In this document: in pieces, positions 30,572 through 40,697 of the stretch
How the letters are laid out: every line of letters starts with the position of its first letter
How positions within the stretch are numbered: position 1 is the stretch's first letter
Origin: Escherichia phage vB_EcoM_G50
Reading direction: 5' to 3' (one strand)
DNA length: 64,000 bases
Sequence record: NC_054917.1
Translations under genes and position numbers: made by a program
Notes under the pieces: generated by a model
The model's database searches: none
What the model was told of the DNA's origin: nothing
What the model saw: only the letters and a program-made list of their open reading frames with translations

Positions 30572-31045
30572 TTATTTGAACGATTTAACGTACTGAATAG
30601 AACCTTTACTATTCACGAAAGCGATTTTACCATTTTTATTATACATGGTAGCAGTACGCTGATAGCCATAAGTTTGCTTACCAGATTGATAACCAACTAA
30701 TGCAAAATTATCTTCACCCATTTTATTCTGTTTAGCGCGAATGCGTTCATGACCATGTGCCATAAGAACCTTAGCATCACCAGTTGCAATGGATCGACGA
30801 GTTTTTTCATCTTCAACTGTATTAACAAAGTCGTCAAATGAATCAAATTTAGCATGAGATTTATTATACAGTTTTCCATCTACTGCATAATTATATCCCT
30901 GTACATCCATCTCAACTTCTGTACCATCATCCAATACAGCAGTGATTTTCTGTCCTTTTTTAAATTTCAAAAGATCAGTAAAAGATTCAGCAATAATTTG
31001 AGAATTAATAGCTGCTTCAGTAATAAATTCTTGATATGTTTTCAT
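30572..31045 (-). CDS. Internal-protein-like head protein with capsid targeting sequence
   Basis: 157 aa; N-terminus MKTYQEFITEA is the conserved T4 internal-protein targeting sequence ending in a protease-type I-x-E site; ipII/ipIII position beside e. Confidence 0.7.
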   Translation of the reverse strand: MKTYQEFITEAAINSQIIAESFTDLLKFKKGQKITAVLDDGTEVEMDVQGYNYAVDGKLYNKSHAKFDSFDDFVNTVEDEKTRRSIATGDAKVLMAHGHERIRAKQNKMGEDNFALVGYQSGKQTYGYQRTATMYNKNGKIAFVNSKGSIQYVKSFK

Positions 31046-31061
31046 GTGTATCCTTTAATTT

Positions 31062-31379
31062 TTATTCTTTAGGGAAGTTTTTAGAATATGCATCATAAAG
31101 CTTATTTCCAATACGGCGGAAAACTCTAGCCGCAAAACGATTTTCTGGGTTTTTAATCATGATTTGCATCATATAAGTACCCGCGTCAGAAAGAGCTTCT
31201 TCATAGTACCCGTTAATTTCTTTAAGAGTCCTACGTTTACCACCAGGACCATCAACAGTGATTTTCCATTTACCTGTAGAAGTGCGACTTGGCGGCTCAA
31301 CTTGTTCAATCCAGATATAACCGCCTTCTACACGTTGTCCTTGGGCAGATTCTGCAATAAATTCTTTAAACGTTTTCAT
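31062..31379 (-). CDS. Internal-protein-like head protein with capsid targeting sequence
   Basis: 105 aa; N-terminus MKTFKEFIAES; immediately downstream of e. Confidence 0.7.
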   Translation of the reverse strand: MKTFKEFIAESAQGQRVEGGYIWIEQVEPPSRTSTGKWKITVDGPGGKRRTLKEINGYYEEALSDAGTYMMQIMIKNPENRFAARVFRRIGNKLYDAYSKNFPKE

Positions 31380-34853: not shown

Positions 34854-35141
34854 AGTATTTCCTTAGGTTAATTAAGATTTAAAATCCATGAGAGTATTAT
34901 ACTCCGGATAGTTTGTAAACTATTTCAACATCGCCTTTTGCTGCTTTATAACCTTCAGCCCAAGATACAACCGAGTTTTTATCTGAAGATTCAAATTCTG
35001 GCATTGGACTTTCATCAATGTTCACACAGTATGTTTCTTCATTTTCGTCAAACCAAATAGTTAAAGTAGTCATTTATTTCTCCGCTTCTGTGATTGTTTT
35101 GATAAGTCTATAATAACACCGTCCTTGGTGTTTGTACACAC

Positions 35142-35417
35142 TTATTTCATATTATTGAAATATTCTTCTGCGATTTCATCGTTATCGTGGTAAACTTTAG
35201 AAGACAGTTTAACATAACCTTCAGCAGTGAACATATTAATCACAACTTTTACAGTATACCACTGACCGTCTTCATTACCCATTACTGCGTAAGTTTCAAA
35301 CATCAGATGGTCAGGACCGATAACTTTAATATCATTCACTGTACGACCGAAATCTTCTGAAACGCATTTCATAAAGAAGTTGAACAGTTCGCCGTAATTA
35401 TCCATTTCATTCTCCAA
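35142..35417 (-). CDS. Hypothetical acidic protein
   Basis: 91-aa track ORF (track start appears to be TTG; an ATG four codons in is the likelier start); early promoter upstream. Confidence 0.5.
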   Translation of the reverse strand: MENEMDNYGELFNFFMKCVSEDFGRTVNDIKVIGPDHLMFETYAVMGNEDGQWYTVKVVINMFTAEGYVKLSSKVYHDNDEIAEEYFNNMK

Positions 35418-35448
35418 GTTGTTTTCTGTATCAGTAGTTGATAGTTGT

Positions 35449-35478
35449 ATAGTACCACGGAAGAACAGAGATGTAAAC
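35449..35478 (-). promoter_or_regulatory. T4-type early promoter (-35 GTTTAC, 18 nt, -10 TACTAT) with conserved leader
   Basis: Minus strand TGTTTACatctctgttcttccgtggTACTATacaactatcaactac; near-identical to the block at 18870. Confidence 0.55.
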
Positions 35479-35610
35479 AGTTTTGTGAAAAATTTTTTAA
35501 AAAGTTTTAGGGAATTCTAGGGAAGGGAGGGGCAATTAAAGGATAGGATAATATATTATAAAGGGTAGAAACTAAATGATGCCTAGAGAGGTCCAGAAAG
35601 GCCTAGATGC

Positions 35611-35636
35611 CAAAAAGCCCTATCATTTAGATAGGG
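35611..35636 (-). terminator. Intrinsic terminator after the first extra internal-protein-like gene
   Basis: Hairpin ccctatc-attta-gataggg followed by UUUUU on the minus strand, directly after the stop at 35645. Confidence 0.55.
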
Positions 35637-35644
35637 ATTTAAAA

Positions 35645-36208
35645 TTATTTATCTAGTTTAGTTATTATAGCTTCTACGGCAGCTTTTAGCTTAGATGCGG
35701 TGTTAATACGATTTTTAATTTCAGTATACGCATCGCCAAGAACATCAAGGCTATCAGAATAAACACTTACACTATTGCGTTCGCTATTTGAAATAGAACC
35801 TTTAGTTTTACGATCAAAATCGGTGTACACGTCTTGAAGATCACGCGCTGCCTTCTTTGCATCATCCAATGCATCAAGAGCTTTATTCAAAGCATTAACG
35901 TATTTTTTAGTGTCGAACATATTCTTAGAAATTTTAGCAGGTGCACGTTCAGGAGTAGCTAATACAGATTTAGGAACCTGAGCGCCAGATGCCAATTTCT
36001 TAGAAATTTTGAAAAACGCTTTATTGAATTTATTTTCTTGACTCATCGTAAAAGAACTATTATCGATGTTGTACATTTCAATAGCTTTAGCTTTCCACTT
36101 AAGAAAATCGCCGCGGTCTTTTGGGTCCAAGTGGAAAAATACTTTAGTAAGATCTGCTTCAGATGGTAATTTTGCTGCTTCGGTTAAAAATTCGGCATAG
36201 GTTTTCAT
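35645..36208 (-). CDS. Internal-protein-like protein with capsid targeting sequence (additional cassette)
   Basis: 187 aa; N-terminus MKTYAEFLTEA; Lys/Ala-rich; bounded by terminator hairpins. Confidence 0.65.
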   Translation of the reverse strand: MKTYAEFLTEAAKLPSEADLTKVFFHLDPKDRGDFLKWKAKAIEMYNIDNSSFTMSQENKFNKAFFKISKKLASGAQVPKSVLATPERAPAKISKNMFDTKKYVNALNKALDALDDAKKAARDLQDVYTDFDRKTKGSISNSERNSVSVYSDSLDVLGDAYTEIKNRINTASKLKAAVEAIITKLDK

Positions 36209-36296
36209 TTAAAATCCTTGAAATAATTTATCGGTTGGTTATTAATTATTTATTACTTTGTTATTATCCGTAACAGCATTCTCTATGTGATTCAAA

Positions 36297-36324
36297 CTAA
36301 AAACCCCAACCTTTCGGTCGGGGC
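36297..36324 (-). terminator. Intrinsic terminator, copy 1 of a repeated hairpin
   Basis: ccccaacc-tttc-ggtcgggg with a U-run on the minus strand; near-identical copy at 36855-36884. Confidence 0.6.
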
Positions 36325-36332
36325 TAAGAATG

Positions 36333-36806
36333 TTATTTGATTTGTTTAGCAGACCAAATGCGGTCTTTGATGATTTTTTGAATGTCTTCAACATACTCTA
36401 GGTCATGAGCATGTGGGTTATCTTTGAAACTATAAGCACGAGCTAGTTTTTGGCCTTCAGTTTTGATTACTAAAAGCTCTTTAAGGATAGCTTCATATTT
36501 AGCGATAATTCCTTTAACAATATTTTTTTCTTGTGCAGCTTTAGGATCTGCTTTAGGAGCAGGTTTACCCGAAGCCTTTGCAAAAGCAGCACCAGTAGCA
36601 ACTAAACTTTTCCAGGCCATACTAACCGCATTTCCTGTAAATCCTTCTGCTTTCATGTCGCGAGCAAACTGGAATCGTGATTCGTCAGAAGCATCTTTAT
36701 AGGAATATTTACCCGCTGCAATGGCTGCTTTTGCGACAGCTTGAATTTCGGTGCTAGATGCTTCATTTAACACCGCTTCATTTAAAAATTGAGCATATGA
36801 TTTCAT
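36333..36806 (-). CDS. Internal-protein-like protein with capsid targeting sequence (additional cassette)
   Basis: 157 aa; N-terminus MKSYAQFLNEA; late-promoter motif upstream. Confidence 0.65.
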   Translation of the reverse strand: MKSYAQFLNEAVLNEASSTEIQAVAKAAIAAGKYSYKDASDESRFQFARDMKAEGFTGNAVSMAWKSLVATGAAFAKASGKPAPKADPKAAQEKNIVKGIIAKYEAILKELLVIKTEGQKLARAYSFKDNPHAHDLEYVEDIQKIIKDRIWSAKQIK

Positions 36807-36846
36807 CTTATTTCCTGTTTTAATTCGTGGATTTAATATACTACTA

Positions 36847-36854
36847 TATTTATA
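36847..36854 (-). promoter_or_regulatory. T4 late promoter motif TATAAATA
   Basis: Exact TATAAATA on the minus strand about 40 nt upstream of the ATG at 36806. Confidence 0.5.
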
Positions 36855-36884
36855 CTAAAAAGCCCCAACCTTTCGGTCGGGGCT
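36855..36884 (-). terminator. Intrinsic terminator, copy 2 of the repeated hairpin
   Basis: agccccaacc-tttc-ggtcggggct followed by UUUUU on the minus strand. Confidence 0.6.
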
Positions 36885-36889
36885 AAGCC

Positions 36890-37190
36890 TTGCGGCAACC
36901 TTGTCGGGGTTCCACCTGCTAAGGCAAGTGTTTGTACGAAACGCCGGGATTCGAACCCGGTTATTAAGCAGTTGACGCTACTTAATATTTTTAAAAGGCC
37001 ATATCTCGACCATATCCGAACGTTCCGTCAAAAACGCTACTCGGCTTACGGCAAAGATATTTCCTCGAATCGATAATTCGGTGCGCCGTTTCTGCTGTGA
37101 TGTAAGAGGGCATCAACAAATCATAAAGATTTATTAACACAATTCCTTACCCAGGGAACATCAGTCCGACGACTTACCGGTAGCGACCCG
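36890..37190 (-). ncRNA. Putative small stable RNA(s), tRNA-like (comparable to T4 species 1/2 RNAs)
   Basis: About 300 nt with no ORF; contains a canonical T-arm CCGGGUUCGAAUCCCGG (plus strand 36944-36960) and flanking helices but no clean cloverleaf by eye. Confidence 0.3.
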
Positions 37191-37195
37191 GTTTC

Positions 37196-37546
37196 TTAAT
37201 ATTCTTTTAAAGCATCAATCTGTTCACGACGTTTACGCCATAAATCAATTGCTTCATACGCAGATTCAGCATTTCGAATTGGACGGCATTTATATAAAGA
37301 CTTGTGATTTTGATATTGCGTAGATAACGGAATTTTATCTAAAAGGTCTTTACGTTCAAAGTATTCGTAACCATCTAAGCCAAATGAACGATTTTTGAGA
37401 AATTGCCAATGACCAAATTCGTTTTGAATATAAATATAATCCGCGTGTTGATAAAGTAAATTAATTTCACGAAATGAGATATGTTTTTCATATTCATTGA
37501 AGTAAAATGTTAAATCATGAACTACTAAATAAACATTACCTTTCAT
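37196..37546 (-). CDS. Hypothetical protein inside the tRNA/stable-RNA region
   Basis: 116-aa ORF; no GIY-YIG or HNH motifs, so not a segB-type homing endonuclease. Confidence 0.5.
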   Translation of the reverse strand: MKGNVYLVVHDLTFYFNEYEKHISFREINLLYQHADYIYIQNEFGHWQFLKNRSFGLDGYEYFERKDLLDKIPLSTQYQNHKSLYKCRPIRNAESAYEAIDLWRKRREQIDALKEY

Positions 37547-37564: not shown

Positions 37565-37640
37565 TGGTCGAGGCAGTAGGGATCGAACCTACGACCTAGG
37601 ACTTAGAAGGTCCTTGCTCTTCCTTCTGAGCTATGCCCCG
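37565..37640 (-). tRNA. tRNA-Arg (anticodon UCU)
   Basis: Hand-folded 76-nt cloverleaf; anticodon loop CUUCUAA; T-loop GGUUCGAUCC; encoded CCA. Confidence 0.8.
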
Positions 37641-37644
37641 TAAT

Positions 37645-37720
37645 TGGGGTGACCGATGGGAGTCGAACCCATGACTACGAGAATCACAATCTTGAGTTCT
37701 ACCAACTGAACTACGGCCAC
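37645..37720 (-). tRNA. tRNA-His (anticodon GUG), probable
   Basis: 76-nt cloverleaf; anticodon loop UUGUGAU; discriminator C73 as in His tRNAs; one A-C mismatch in the anticodon stem; no encoded G-1. Confidence 0.6.
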
Positions 37721-37814
37721 ATTAATACCTACTCCAACAATCAAGATGTCTTCACACGAAATTAAGAGAAGAGTGATCAGTTCAACCCCGATAATCGCGT
37801 CAAGTAGATATTAA

Positions 37815-37830
37815 TGTGACAACTGTCACA
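37815..37830. repeat. Short inverted repeat TGTGACA-ac-TGTCACA in the spacer between tRNAs
   Basis: 7-bp arms with a 2-nt spacer inside a 114-nt tRNA-free gap. Confidence 0.5.
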
Positions 37831-37834
37831 AATT

Positions 37835-37909
37835 TGGCGGACGTGATAGGATTCGAACCTATAACCAATCGCTTAACAGGCGATCGCTCTGCCATTGAGC
37901 TACACATCC
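37835..37909 (-). tRNA. tRNA-Asn (anticodon GUU)
   Basis: 75-nt cloverleaf; anticodon stem-loop AUCGC-CUGUUAA-GCGAU; T-loop GGUUCGAAUCC; encoded CCA. Confidence 0.75.
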
Positions 37910-37913
37910 AAAT

Positions 37914-38000
37914 TGGTGGGGAGTGATGGAGTCGAACCACCCGAGTCGCAATGACAATGGATTTACAGTCCACACCGCTACCTCTACGGGATAACTCCCC
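37914..38000 (-). tRNA. tRNA-Tyr (anticodon GUA), long variable arm
   Basis: 87 nt; anticodon stem-loop GUGGA-CUGUAAA-UCCAU; bacterial-type long variable arm; encoded CCA. Confidence 0.75.
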
Positions 38001-38013
38001 TTAATTCTTAATT

Positions 38014-38088
38014 TGGTGGCCCTGGGTGGAATTGAACCACCATCTGGCGATTATGAGTCGCTTGCTTGAACCTTCCAGCTACAGGGCC
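38014..38088 (-). tRNA. tRNA with CAU anticodon (Ile2-type or Met)
   Basis: 75 nt; anticodon loop CUCAUAA; the position corresponds to T4 tRNA-Ile. Confidence 0.75.
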
Positions 38089-38089
38089 T

Positions 38090-38165
38090 TGGTGCTGATT
38101 GACGGAATCGAACCGCCGACCTTCTCATTACAAGTGAGTTGCTCTACCTACTAAGCTAAATCAGC
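38090..38165 (-). tRNA. tRNA-Thr (anticodon UGU)
   Basis: 76 nt; anticodon loop CUUGUAA; T-loop GGUUCGAUUCC. Confidence 0.8.
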
Positions 38166-38170
38166 AAAAC

Positions 38171-38260
38171 TGGCGGAGGCGATAGGATTTGAACCTATGA
38201 GTCGCCGGAGCGACTGCCGGTTTTCAAGACCGGTGCATTAAACCACTCTGCCACGCCTCC
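38171..38260 (-). tRNA. tRNA-Ser (anticodon UGA), long variable arm
   Basis: 90 nt; anticodon stem-loop CCGGU-CUUGAAA-ACCGG; long variable arm. Confidence 0.85.
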
Positions 38261-38261
38261 A

Positions 38262-38336
38262 GTCTCCATACAAGGATTTGAACCTTGGACCTCCTGATCC
38301 CAAATCAGGCGCTCTACCAAACTGAGCTACACGGAG
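38262..38336 (-). tRNA. tRNA-Pro (anticodon UGG), CCA not encoded
   Basis: Acceptor stem CUCCGUG/UAUGGAG; anticodon loop UUUGGGA; 3' end lacks encoded CCA. Confidence 0.8.
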
Positions 38337-38346
38337 TAAATTAAAT

Positions 38347-38420
<74 letters not shown>

Positions 38421-38425
38421 AAATT

Positions 38426-38512
38426 TGGTGCGAGAAGTGGGACTCGAACCCACAAGGAAATCATTCCGCAGCATTTTAAGTGCTGTGCCTTTACCAATTT
38501 GACCATTCTCGC
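38426..38512 (-). tRNA. tRNA-Leu (anticodon UAA), long variable arm
   Basis: 87 nt; anticodon stem-loop CAGCA-CUUAAAA-UGCUG. Confidence 0.85.
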
Positions 38513-38513
38513 G

Positions 38514-38586
38514 CTGGGAATAAAGGACTCGAACCTTTGCATCCTGGAATCAAAATCCAGTGCCTTACCAACTTGGCTAATTCCCA
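38514..38586 (-). tRNA. tRNA-Gln (anticodon UUG), abuts tRNA-Leu
   Basis: 5' UGGGAAU acceptor; anticodon stem-loop CUGGA-UUUUGAU-UCCAG; 3' end is 1-2 nt from the Leu 5' end (dimeric precursor arrangement). Confidence 0.85.
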
Positions 38587-39564: not shown

Positions 39565-39592
39565 TTTATTCTCCTCAGTAGTTGATAGGGTA

Positions 39593-39622
39593 ATAGTATC
39601 ACAACTAAAACCCTATGTAAAC
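39593..39622 (-). promoter_or_regulatory. T4-type early promoter (-35 GTTTAC, 18 nt, -10 TACTAT)
   Basis: Minus strand TTGTTTACatagggttttagttgtgaTACTAT. Confidence 0.5.
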
Positions 39623-39640
39623 AACTTTGTGAAATATTTA

Positions 39641-39928
39641 TTACAAAAGATTTTTAGCAATAATCTTGAGATGTGCCGCAGAAATGTGTTTAGCTTTAAA
39701 CAACGCAGTTTCTTCAGCAGGAGAGATAATGATTGTAGCACCATCCTTTTTAGCAGACCACCCATCACCTAGGTAAACAGTACCTTTGATTTCTTCGCCA
39801 TCAACCAAACTAATCATTGGTTTACCTTCTCGTCCTTTATTTGCTTTAATAACTTCAGAAGTAAGAGTAGCTTCAGTAATAGTAGAAACCGGGGTAGTTG
39901 TAGAAGTAAATTCTTTGAAAGTTTTCAT
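39641..39928 (-). CDS. ipI: Internal protein I-like head protein
   Basis: 95 aa, the size of T4 IPI; N-terminus MKTFKEFTSTTTPVSTITEA has a targeting-sequence-like start with an I-T-E site; position upstream of 57B. Confidence 0.6.
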   Translation of the reverse strand: MKTFKEFTSTTTPVSTITEATLTSEVIKANKGREGKPMISLVDGEEIKGTVYLGDGWSAKKDGATIIISPAEETALFKAKHISAAHLKIIAKNLL

Positions 39929-39958
39929 TTTATTTTCCTAATTAATTTTGATGAGATA

Positions 39959-39988
39959 ATAGTATCACTACCTCATCAACGTGTAAAC
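39959..39988 (-). promoter_or_regulatory. T4-type early promoter (-35 GTTTAC, 18 nt, -10 TACTAT) upstream of the ipI-like gene
   Basis: Minus strand GTTTACacgttgatgaggtagtgaTACTAT. Confidence 0.5.
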
Positions 39989-40000
39989 AACTTTGTGAAA

Positions 40001-40697
<697 letters not shown>

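Follow-up and report, generated by a model that had tools for sequence, protein, structure and literature searches.

A probable third internal-protein locus in T4-like phages: two diverged capsid-targeting-sequence genes in terminator-delimited cassettes between rnaC and e.8

Lineage-variable internal proteins tagged with a capsid-targeting sequence (CTS) are said to have been known as a kind since Repoila et al. in 1994. Here the analysis concerns two open reading frames (ORFs) with starts of this type in Escherichia phage vB_EcoM_G50, a Tequatrovirus distinct from T4, of which a 64-kb stretch of record NC_054917.1 (hereafter the window) was examined: ORF B (36333-36806, minus strand, 157 aa) and ORF A (35645-36208, minus strand, 187 aa), which lie between rnaC and e.8 in a locus whose genes are all on the minus strand. 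In the T4 internal protein IPIII, the first 10 residues suffice to package foreign proteins (PMC9026906, PMC8442874), with residues 4 and 7 governing targeting and residues 8 and 10 governing processing (PMC9026906, summarising Mullaney & Black 1996; PMC8442874). In 2025, the T4 internal proteins were all reported to be specific inhibitors, each directed at a different type IV restriction enzyme, with Ip1, Ip2 and Ip3 each inhibiting a distinct GmrSD-type enzyme without cross-protection, and the accessory genes of “the two Ip loci” were predicted by the same authors all to target GmrSD variants (PMC12373910). Recent papers refer to two ip loci (PMC12373910, 10.1101/2025.11.20.689424), which in T4 are denV-e and 57B-trna.4. 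The other named Ips (IpIV/DUF7412, Ip5, Ip6 and Ip7), like A and B small lineage-variable CTS ORFs recognised by signal sequence alone, are all found at these two classical loci in the annotations examined, whereas A and B lie outside them. A further functional precedent is Bas37_0260, a CTS protein of phage Bas37 that inhibits McrBC (10.1101/2025.11.20.689424); as in A and B, it is absent from T4 and without homology to IPI-III, which makes it a precedent for orphan anti-restriction effectors, but it is encoded at the ipI locus and its function was shown genetically, and the likeness to A and B is one of description only. Taken jointly with the model of packaging and anti-defence function set out below, it is probable that A and B are two diverged members of one unannotated internal-protein family and that the interval from the rnaC terminator to e.8 is a third ip locus.

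The starts of the two ORFs (MKSYAQFLNEAVLNEA in B and MKTYAEFLTEA in A) resemble the MKTYQEFIAE-type CTS of T4 IPI, IPII and IPIII, with Y4, F7, L/I8 and E10 in both. The determinants established for IPIII (an aromatic residue at position 4 with Phe at 7, and Leu/Ile at 8 with Glu at 10) are present as Tyr4 and Phe7 for targeting and as Leu8 and Glu10 for cleavage by the prohead protease gp21, and the CTS-type starts claimed in an earlier note on this DNA thus hold at all four positions in both ORFs. The CTS of B reads MKSYAQFLNE/AVLNE/A (slashes marking predicted cleavage; codons 1-15, 36762-36806, minus strand), with a second L-N-E site ending at residue 15 and one further L/I-x-E site at residue 110, and that of A reads MKTYAEFLTE/A (codons 1-10, 36179-36208, minus strand), no L/I-x-E site being found in A besides the one in the CTS. 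Five ORFs of at least 50 aa in the window have CTS-like starts, against 0.02 expected (mean of 200 codon-block shuffles): A and B, together with IPI (39641-39928, 99% identical to T4 IPI) and the ORFs at 30572-31045 and 31062-31379, these three lying at the classical ip loci. The predicted mature proteins are lysine-rich, with 177 aa, 19.7 kDa and an isoelectric point (pI) of 9.46 for A and 142 aa, 15.5 kDa and a pI of 9.50 for B; both pI values fall within the range of T4 IPI*-IPIII* (9.0-9.65), and mature A is near IPIII* (183 aa, pI 9.65) in size and charge. Like the T4 internal proteins, A and B are non-essential, variably present and encoded on the same strand in the same 10-kb region.

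At the classical loci of the window, the ORF at 30572-31045 (minus strand) is an IpIV-type gene (DUF7412; phrog_3155, “internal virion protein”). The neighbouring 105-aa CTS ORF at 31062-31379 (minus strand; MKTFKEFIAE/S) matches only phrog_3966 (“unknown function”) and is, judged by its start, a second unannotated CTS family in the window. The ipII/ipIII position holds no ortholog of T4 ipII or ipIII, and an early-type promoter precedes the gene pair found there.

Homology searches assigned both proteins at full length to phrog_2280, annotated “unknown function” (A, 8e-53 over profile positions 1-177 of 178; B, 6e-60 over positions 1-172 of 178), and T4 carries neither gene at this site. A JS98-type 205-aa protein and a 177-aa relative from a Klebsiella phage match the same profile, with E values for the four proteins ranging from 1e-53 to 1e-60. 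Since A and B share only about 27% identity, they are called paralogs on the basis of the phrog_2280 profile and of the 205-aa protein, which bridges the pair (E of 1e-8 to B and 2e-3 to A), and not of a direct comparison. For IPI, IPII, IPIII and IpIV there are separate PHROGs, all labelled “internal virion protein”, among which 4363, 7857 and 5341 belong to IPI-III. BLASTP of A and B against IPI, IPII and IPIII gave matches confined to the CTS, and past these first 10-12 residues the two proteins differ from the T4 internal proteins in showing no similarity and in a predicted all-helical two-domain architecture. Scans of A and B against Pfam and NCBIfam returned sub-threshold noise only (cytochrome b562, ALIX, TraA), and neither protein matched a Pfam model including IPI_T4 (PF11634), on which the IPI of the window scores 2e-53. 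As the known Ips share no mutual homology, the missing likeness to characterised inhibitors is no argument against a function of this kind.

The family is very narrow. A word-indexed homolog search returned only proteins of T4-like phages (11 and 14 matches), as did an exhaustive profile search (13 representatives among 1.8 billion), and neither search gave a cellular homolog or a functional lead. Distant members (relatives in the B profile to E 2e-4) keep an x-x-x-F/Y-x-x-F-L-x-E start, as in MLKFNEFLAE, MINFSDFLNE and MKSFSSFLNE, as well as the conserved N-domain and a Lys/Pro/Ala linker, with a variable helical C-terminal domain. This matches the layout of B, in which a small N-domain of helices follows the CTS and a linker rich in K, P and A leads to the helical hairpin at the C-terminus, and that of A, whose N-domain is also helical, whose linker is disordered and whose C-terminal helical hairpin is long; the AlphaFold2 model of B is acceptable (predicted local distance difference test score, pLDDT, 75), and the same architecture appears in both models. 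Foldseek of B retrieved only its own orthologs from BFVD and no match with E < 1 from the PDB, and sequence searches of the PDB with A and B gave no match. The ratio of non-synonymous to synonymous substitution rates (dN/dS) is 0.05-0.13 for A and B at dS up to 1.7, indicating purifying selection. Phage vB_EcoM_G50 encodes exactly these A and B proteins and vB_Eco_F26 exactly this A, and the corresponding region of the window is 96-99% identical to that of many T4-like phages of E. coli, Shigella, Yersinia and Citrobacter. In GenBank phage records A is found 163 times and B 510 times, always as “hypothetical protein”; no Ip annotation was seen for either among the GenBank, UniProt and PHROG labels examined (“hypothetical” or “unknown”), and the supplements of Silas 2025 hold no A- or B-like sequence. 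The genes, described as new in the earlier note, are therefore already on record, and what is new is their recognition as internal proteins at a third ip locus. No description of phrog_2280 members as internal proteins or of a third ip locus was found, an earlier mention in Repoila 1994 or in the Comeau 2014 supplements being possible.

Comparison with T4 delimits the locus. The T4 record shows e.8, a gap of 284 nt and then rnaC, in agreement with the earlier statement that T4 has no internal-protein genes here. T4 70358-70854 aligns to window 35140-35636 and T4 70825-71168 to window 36852-37196, leaving 1,216 bp of the window (about 35637-36852), which correspond to cassette B plus cassette A, without a T4 counterpart. 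The two sequences part within a terminator hairpin, in its 3' half and T-run (GGGCTTTTTGG). Phages T2, T6 and Yersinia phage PST are likewise empty between e.8 and rnaC, and their annotations name Ip genes at the denV-e and 57B-trna.4 loci only.

Three terminators, all on the minus strand, bound the cassettes. T1 (AGCCCCGACCGAAAGGTTGGGGCT followed by T5; 36856-36884, stem-loop 36861-36884, -20.3 kcal/mol, z -4.2) lies downstream of rnaC, where the tRNA cluster ends, and forms the upstream boundary of cassette B; T4 has a single copy of the same hairpin. T2 (36297-36325, stem-loop 36302-36325, -19.5 kcal/mol), a 97% copy of T1, closes cassette B and forms the upstream boundary of cassette A. 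Both have 10-bp stems and GAAA loops followed by a T-run, and they are 97% identical over 30 nt; no third copy was found in the 64-kb window even at 3 mismatches (0.00 expected), so that the near-identical hairpin pair proposed earlier is confirmed and unique in the window. T3 (CCCTATCTAAATGATAGGG followed by CTTTTTGG; 35612-35636, stem-loop 35618-35636), which follows A, is weaker (-10.5 kcal/mol) and has a different stem, and its 3' flank (GGGCTTTTTGG) equals that of the T4 hairpin, where T4 homology resumes. The proposal that each gene is followed by a terminator is thus right for B (T2) and for A (T3), with the correction that the hairpin at 36856-36884 follows rnaC and lies upstream of B. 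A 50-aa ORF overlapping T2 (36242-36394) was dismissed as spurious.

The late promoter predicted for the upstream gene is also present: the octamer TATAAATA (36847-36854, minus strand) stands directly behind the T-run of T1, 40 nt before the ATG of ORF B, and is followed by the Shine-Dalgarno sequence AGGAAA (36811-36816, minus strand), a Shine-Dalgarno sequence preceding each of A and B. The octamer is not enriched across the window (13 found, 10.7 expected). In ten related loci from IMG/VR, TATAAATA is kept at the B position in eight, covering several phage lineages, and the other two carry AATAAATA; the phage slur13, which has B only, also has TATAAATA at this position. Before A, AATAAATA, which is one mismatch from the late octamer, lies 38 nt ahead of the ATG (36247-36254, minus strand) and is conserved in A-only and A+B loci, making it a possible weak late promoter. 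Behind T2 there is otherwise only ATCACA-17-GATAAT, a 9/12 sigma-70-like match. The self-contained module envisaged in the earlier note therefore applies in full to B (promoter, gene and terminator), and for A is reduced to AATAAATA and this sigma-70-like match.

The cassettes occur separately and together. A 2,057-nt query of the locus matched 771 of 50,697 phage records, and among 60 of these listed at even steps down the ranking four states were found: A+B (span of about 2,050 nt; 10 of the 60 rows, and 126 records in total), A only (about 1,480 nt; 3 rows), B only (about 1,365 nt; 21 rows) and empty (about 810 nt; 6 rows). Phages RB14 and ime09, like vB_EcoM_G50, encode both A and B. Read on the transcribed strand, the T4 junction consists of rnaC, the hairpin and the common downstream sequence; slur13 (B only) has hairpin, TATAAATA, B, hairpin and common downstream sequence, with a 35-nt direct repeat flanking the cassette; T4_ev151 (A only) has hairpin, A, terminator T3 and common downstream sequence; and the window has both cassettes in series. 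All four junctions lie exactly at the hairpins, as expected from the earlier proposal of separable terminator-delimited cassettes, and this pattern fits recombination at repeated terminators. Each gene would thus form a cassette ending in its own terminator, and recombination at the repeated hairpins and the shared 3' flank would add or remove cassettes.

The direction of change can be considered from the wider distribution. In the ten IMG/VR loci, for which e.8 served as the anchor of retrieval, the next gene upstream of it is in every case a CTS ORF (B, a 153/154-aa B variant or, in two JS98-sized contigs, the 205-aa protein), and the order hairpin, T-run, late octamer, about 38 nt, AGGAAA and ATG precedes the first CTS gene in all ten. 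A B-type gene also lies between the tRNA cluster and the e.x genes in Mosigvirus mobillu and Jiaodavirus KpV477, and the same tRNA/rnaC-e.x site is occupied in phages annotated as Tequatrovirus, Mosigvirus and Jiaodavirus and in JS98-sized contigs. A B-type gene at the rnaC-e.8 site thus looks ancestral in Tevenvirinae, and its absence from T4, T2, T6 and PST is probably a loss brought about by recombination between the duplicated hairpins; loss on the T4 side is favoured over gain because the B-type gene sits beside the tRNA cluster across several Tevenvirinae genera. Insertion, as first suggested, describes the window relative to T4, and for B the direction is probably the reverse.

Exchange may also occur within the genes. 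A B variant of 157 aa (L009:3817-4290) and the 205-aa A-like protein of two other loci (L008:4269-4886 and L012:4269-4886) have an identical promoter, leader and first 16 codons (MKTYNEFLNESVLNEA) and diverge completely past codon 16. This suggests recombination inside the CTS-coding region, and effector bodies may be swapped in this way, with the CTS as their 5' homology arm. In the Klebsiella phage KpV477 (L020:3341-3731) the annotation splits the B-type gene beside the tRNA cluster into two short ORFs that overlap (54 and 78 aa), where related Klebsiella phages have an intact 177-aa protein; the gene may be a frameshifted pseudogene or a sequencing error.

The arrangement recalls PeSL and PmSL, the mobile regulatory cassettes of T4-type phages (Arbiol 2010, PMC2839356; Comeau 2014, PMC4122927), PeSL (promoter-early stem-loop) denoting a stem-loop terminator with an early sigma-70-type promoter directly behind it (PMC4122927). 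In common with these, a repeated stem-loop abuts a promoter, flanks small variable ORFs and stands at the exact end points of insertions and deletions. The A/B locus differs in that T1 is followed by the late TATAAATA and not by an early TTTACW-N17-TAYWAT or Mot-box promoter, in that the stem is GCCCCGACC-GAAA-GGTTGGGGC and not of the T4/PST AGNA-loop-TCNT type, and in that the stem-loop has only two copies in the window, both at this locus. The flanks of ipI in the window (39930-40040 and 39570-39640, minus strand) have nearly the same early-promoter box on both sides (ATTTCACAAAGTTGTTTACA ... TGATACTAT) and are PeSL-like, as described for the classical ipI locus, whereas the A/B locus has the late-promoter hairpin instead.

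Evidence from virions is available for an ortholog of B. The product of g140 of Yersinia phage fD1 (67942-68415, 157 aa), 97.5% identical to B by tblastn, was scored as particle-associated in an LC-MS/MS (liquid chromatography-tandem mass spectrometry) analysis of ultracentrifuge-purified phage, as was the IpIV-type g129, and the adjacent e.8 was not (PMC8309999, Table S3). The same study lists 113 particle-associated gene products, among them DenV, lysozyme e and NudE (PMC8309999), and the detection of the B ortholog is supportive, not decisive. The paper on phages fPS-2/-65/-90 holds no virion proteome.

From these data we infer that A and B are packaged, processed by gp21 and injected. The proteins would be made at the time of prohead assembly, B from its late promoter and A by read-through or from the weak promoter; the 10-residue CTS would dock them through Tyr4 and Phe7 into the scaffolding core, and gp21 would cut after Leu8-x-Glu10, with the second L-N-E site at residue 15 available in B. 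The basic mature forms (about 19.7 kDa for A and 15.5 kDa for B) would then stay in the head with the DNA and be ejected into the next host, where their most likely action would be the stoichiometric inhibition of a host defence directed at the incoming modified DNA. By analogy with the internal proteins of assigned function, A and B are candidate injected anti-restriction proteins; nothing in their sequences or predicted folds points to a target. A more detailed version of this model, which is tentative and on balance doubtful, would have phrog_2280 as a modular scaffold for injected effectors, the CTS and N-domain (AGKYSYKD...AWKS) serving packaging and ejection and the C-terminal hairpin serving as specificity module, with A and B directed against two defences outside the targets of Ip1-3 and with the hairpin-TATAAATA element as the equivalent of a PeSL with a late promoter, shuffling such effectors at a third ip hotspot. 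If this were true, the targets could be a further GmrSD/BrxU subtype or a non-restriction system.

Several observations weigh against packaged anti-defence paralogs. On shallow alignments, hhalign of A against B was not significant (probability 17%). The AlphaFold2 model of A is poor (pLDDT 59), fold searches with A and B found generic helical hairpins and no informative structural neighbour, and neither resembles a characterised anti-defence protein. A has no consensus late promoter and sits behind the strong terminator T2. Because the 113 products of the fD1 study that share particle-associated status include soluble enzymes, the detection of the B ortholog is of low specificity, and no comparable virion detection of A was found. 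Finally, the strong purifying selection on the two genes, with little diversification within subfamilies, is unlike the fast sequence change expected from an arms race.

Some of these points would suit a generic role, in which A and B are packaged and serve to neutralise the charge of the DNA, to aid condensation or ejection or to fill the scaffold, with no specific host target. The mature forms are lysine-rich with a pI of 9.5, and contacts between lysines of T4 internal proteins and DNA phosphates occur in the head (PMC3012670); the predicted folds are simple helical hairpins without a recognisable binding or catalytic site, and selection is purifying with no sign of diversification. A generic role is nevertheless unlikely, as neither gene is required (both are missing from T4, T2, T6 and PST, and all combinations of presence and absence occur), as the T-even internal proteins that have been assigned a function are all specific nuclease inhibitors, and as the N-domain is retained across lineages that have swapped the C-terminal domain, a pattern that suits a specificity module better than a bulk polycation. 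It is markedly less likely still that A and B stay outside the head and act in the cell late in infection, the CTS-like start being a recombination relic of ip-type gene starts. Such 5' ends are indeed recombination substrates, as illustrated by the leader and first 16 codons common to the B variant and the 205-aa protein and by the 42-nt repeat (76% identity) formed by the starts of the A and B genes, and the low specificity of the fD1 proteome would allow it. However, the four CTS positions are kept in members diverged beyond recognisable similarity at the DNA level, where a relic would have drifted; a 10-residue CTS alone packages foreign proteins, so that any carrier made late should be packaged; and a late promoter precedes B. 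The idea that A and B are chance open frames in an AT-rich spacer, with hairpins that are mere transcription terminators, would agree with the lack of Pfam/NCBIfam matches and the uniform “hypothetical protein” annotation and is refuted by the dN/dS of 0.05-0.13 at dS up to 1.7 and by the B-ortholog peptides seen by mass spectrometry, besides the conservation in 163 (A) and 510 (B) records and the Shine-Dalgarno sequence on each ORF.

With A and B as probable internal proteins, a third ip locus is added to the two classical ones, with a family that several hundred sequenced T-even-like phages carry, many of these phages being candidates for phage therapy. Classical biochemistry missed the locus because it is empty in the model phages T2, T4 and T6. 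As A and B are easily recognised, dispensable and naturally absent from T4, gain- and loss-of-function tests could reveal new pairs of defence and counter-defence and help explain differences in host range.

Next to the cassettes, rnaC (36935-37073) and rnaD (37080-37200), both on the minus strand, were placed through homology to the annotated T4 RNAs (about 95% identity), no Rfam model matching across the two. A 116-aa ORF without family assignment (37196-37546, minus strand) lies between rnaD and tRNA-Arg and may correspond to a T2 coding sequence of the same length at the same position, the likeness being one of length and position alone. The tRNA cluster (37565-38586, minus strand) has 11 tRNA genes against 8 in T4, with extra His, Asn, Tyr and Met genes, no segB and a gap of 114 nt between tRNA-His and tRNA-Asn (37721-37834). 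On the other side, the e.8 homolog (35142-35405, minus strand), with which the e.x block begins downstream of the cassettes, has its own early-type promoter. Where T4 has e.7 (111 aa), the window has an unrelated 58-aa ORF (34897-35073, minus strand), at the site where PST has ORF130 and fD1 has g138, and this is another small replacement in the e.x block.

A few variant structures were seen around the locus. In vB_Eco_F26 (OP870145.1, locus positions 778-1511), a 350-bp tandem duplication corresponding to window 35382-35731 takes in the 3' end of A, the 5' end of e.8 and what lies between them, and is either real or an assembly artefact. In metagenome/Logan assemblies, one predicted protein (P0025) has a trna.3-like N-terminus fused to the C-terminus of B, a junction that would remove the tRNA cluster entirely, another (P0011) has a fragment of A followed by sequence unrelated to A, and a third (P0024) has the N-domain of B followed by unrelated sequence; these chimeras are natural deletion or recombination variants or misassemblies.

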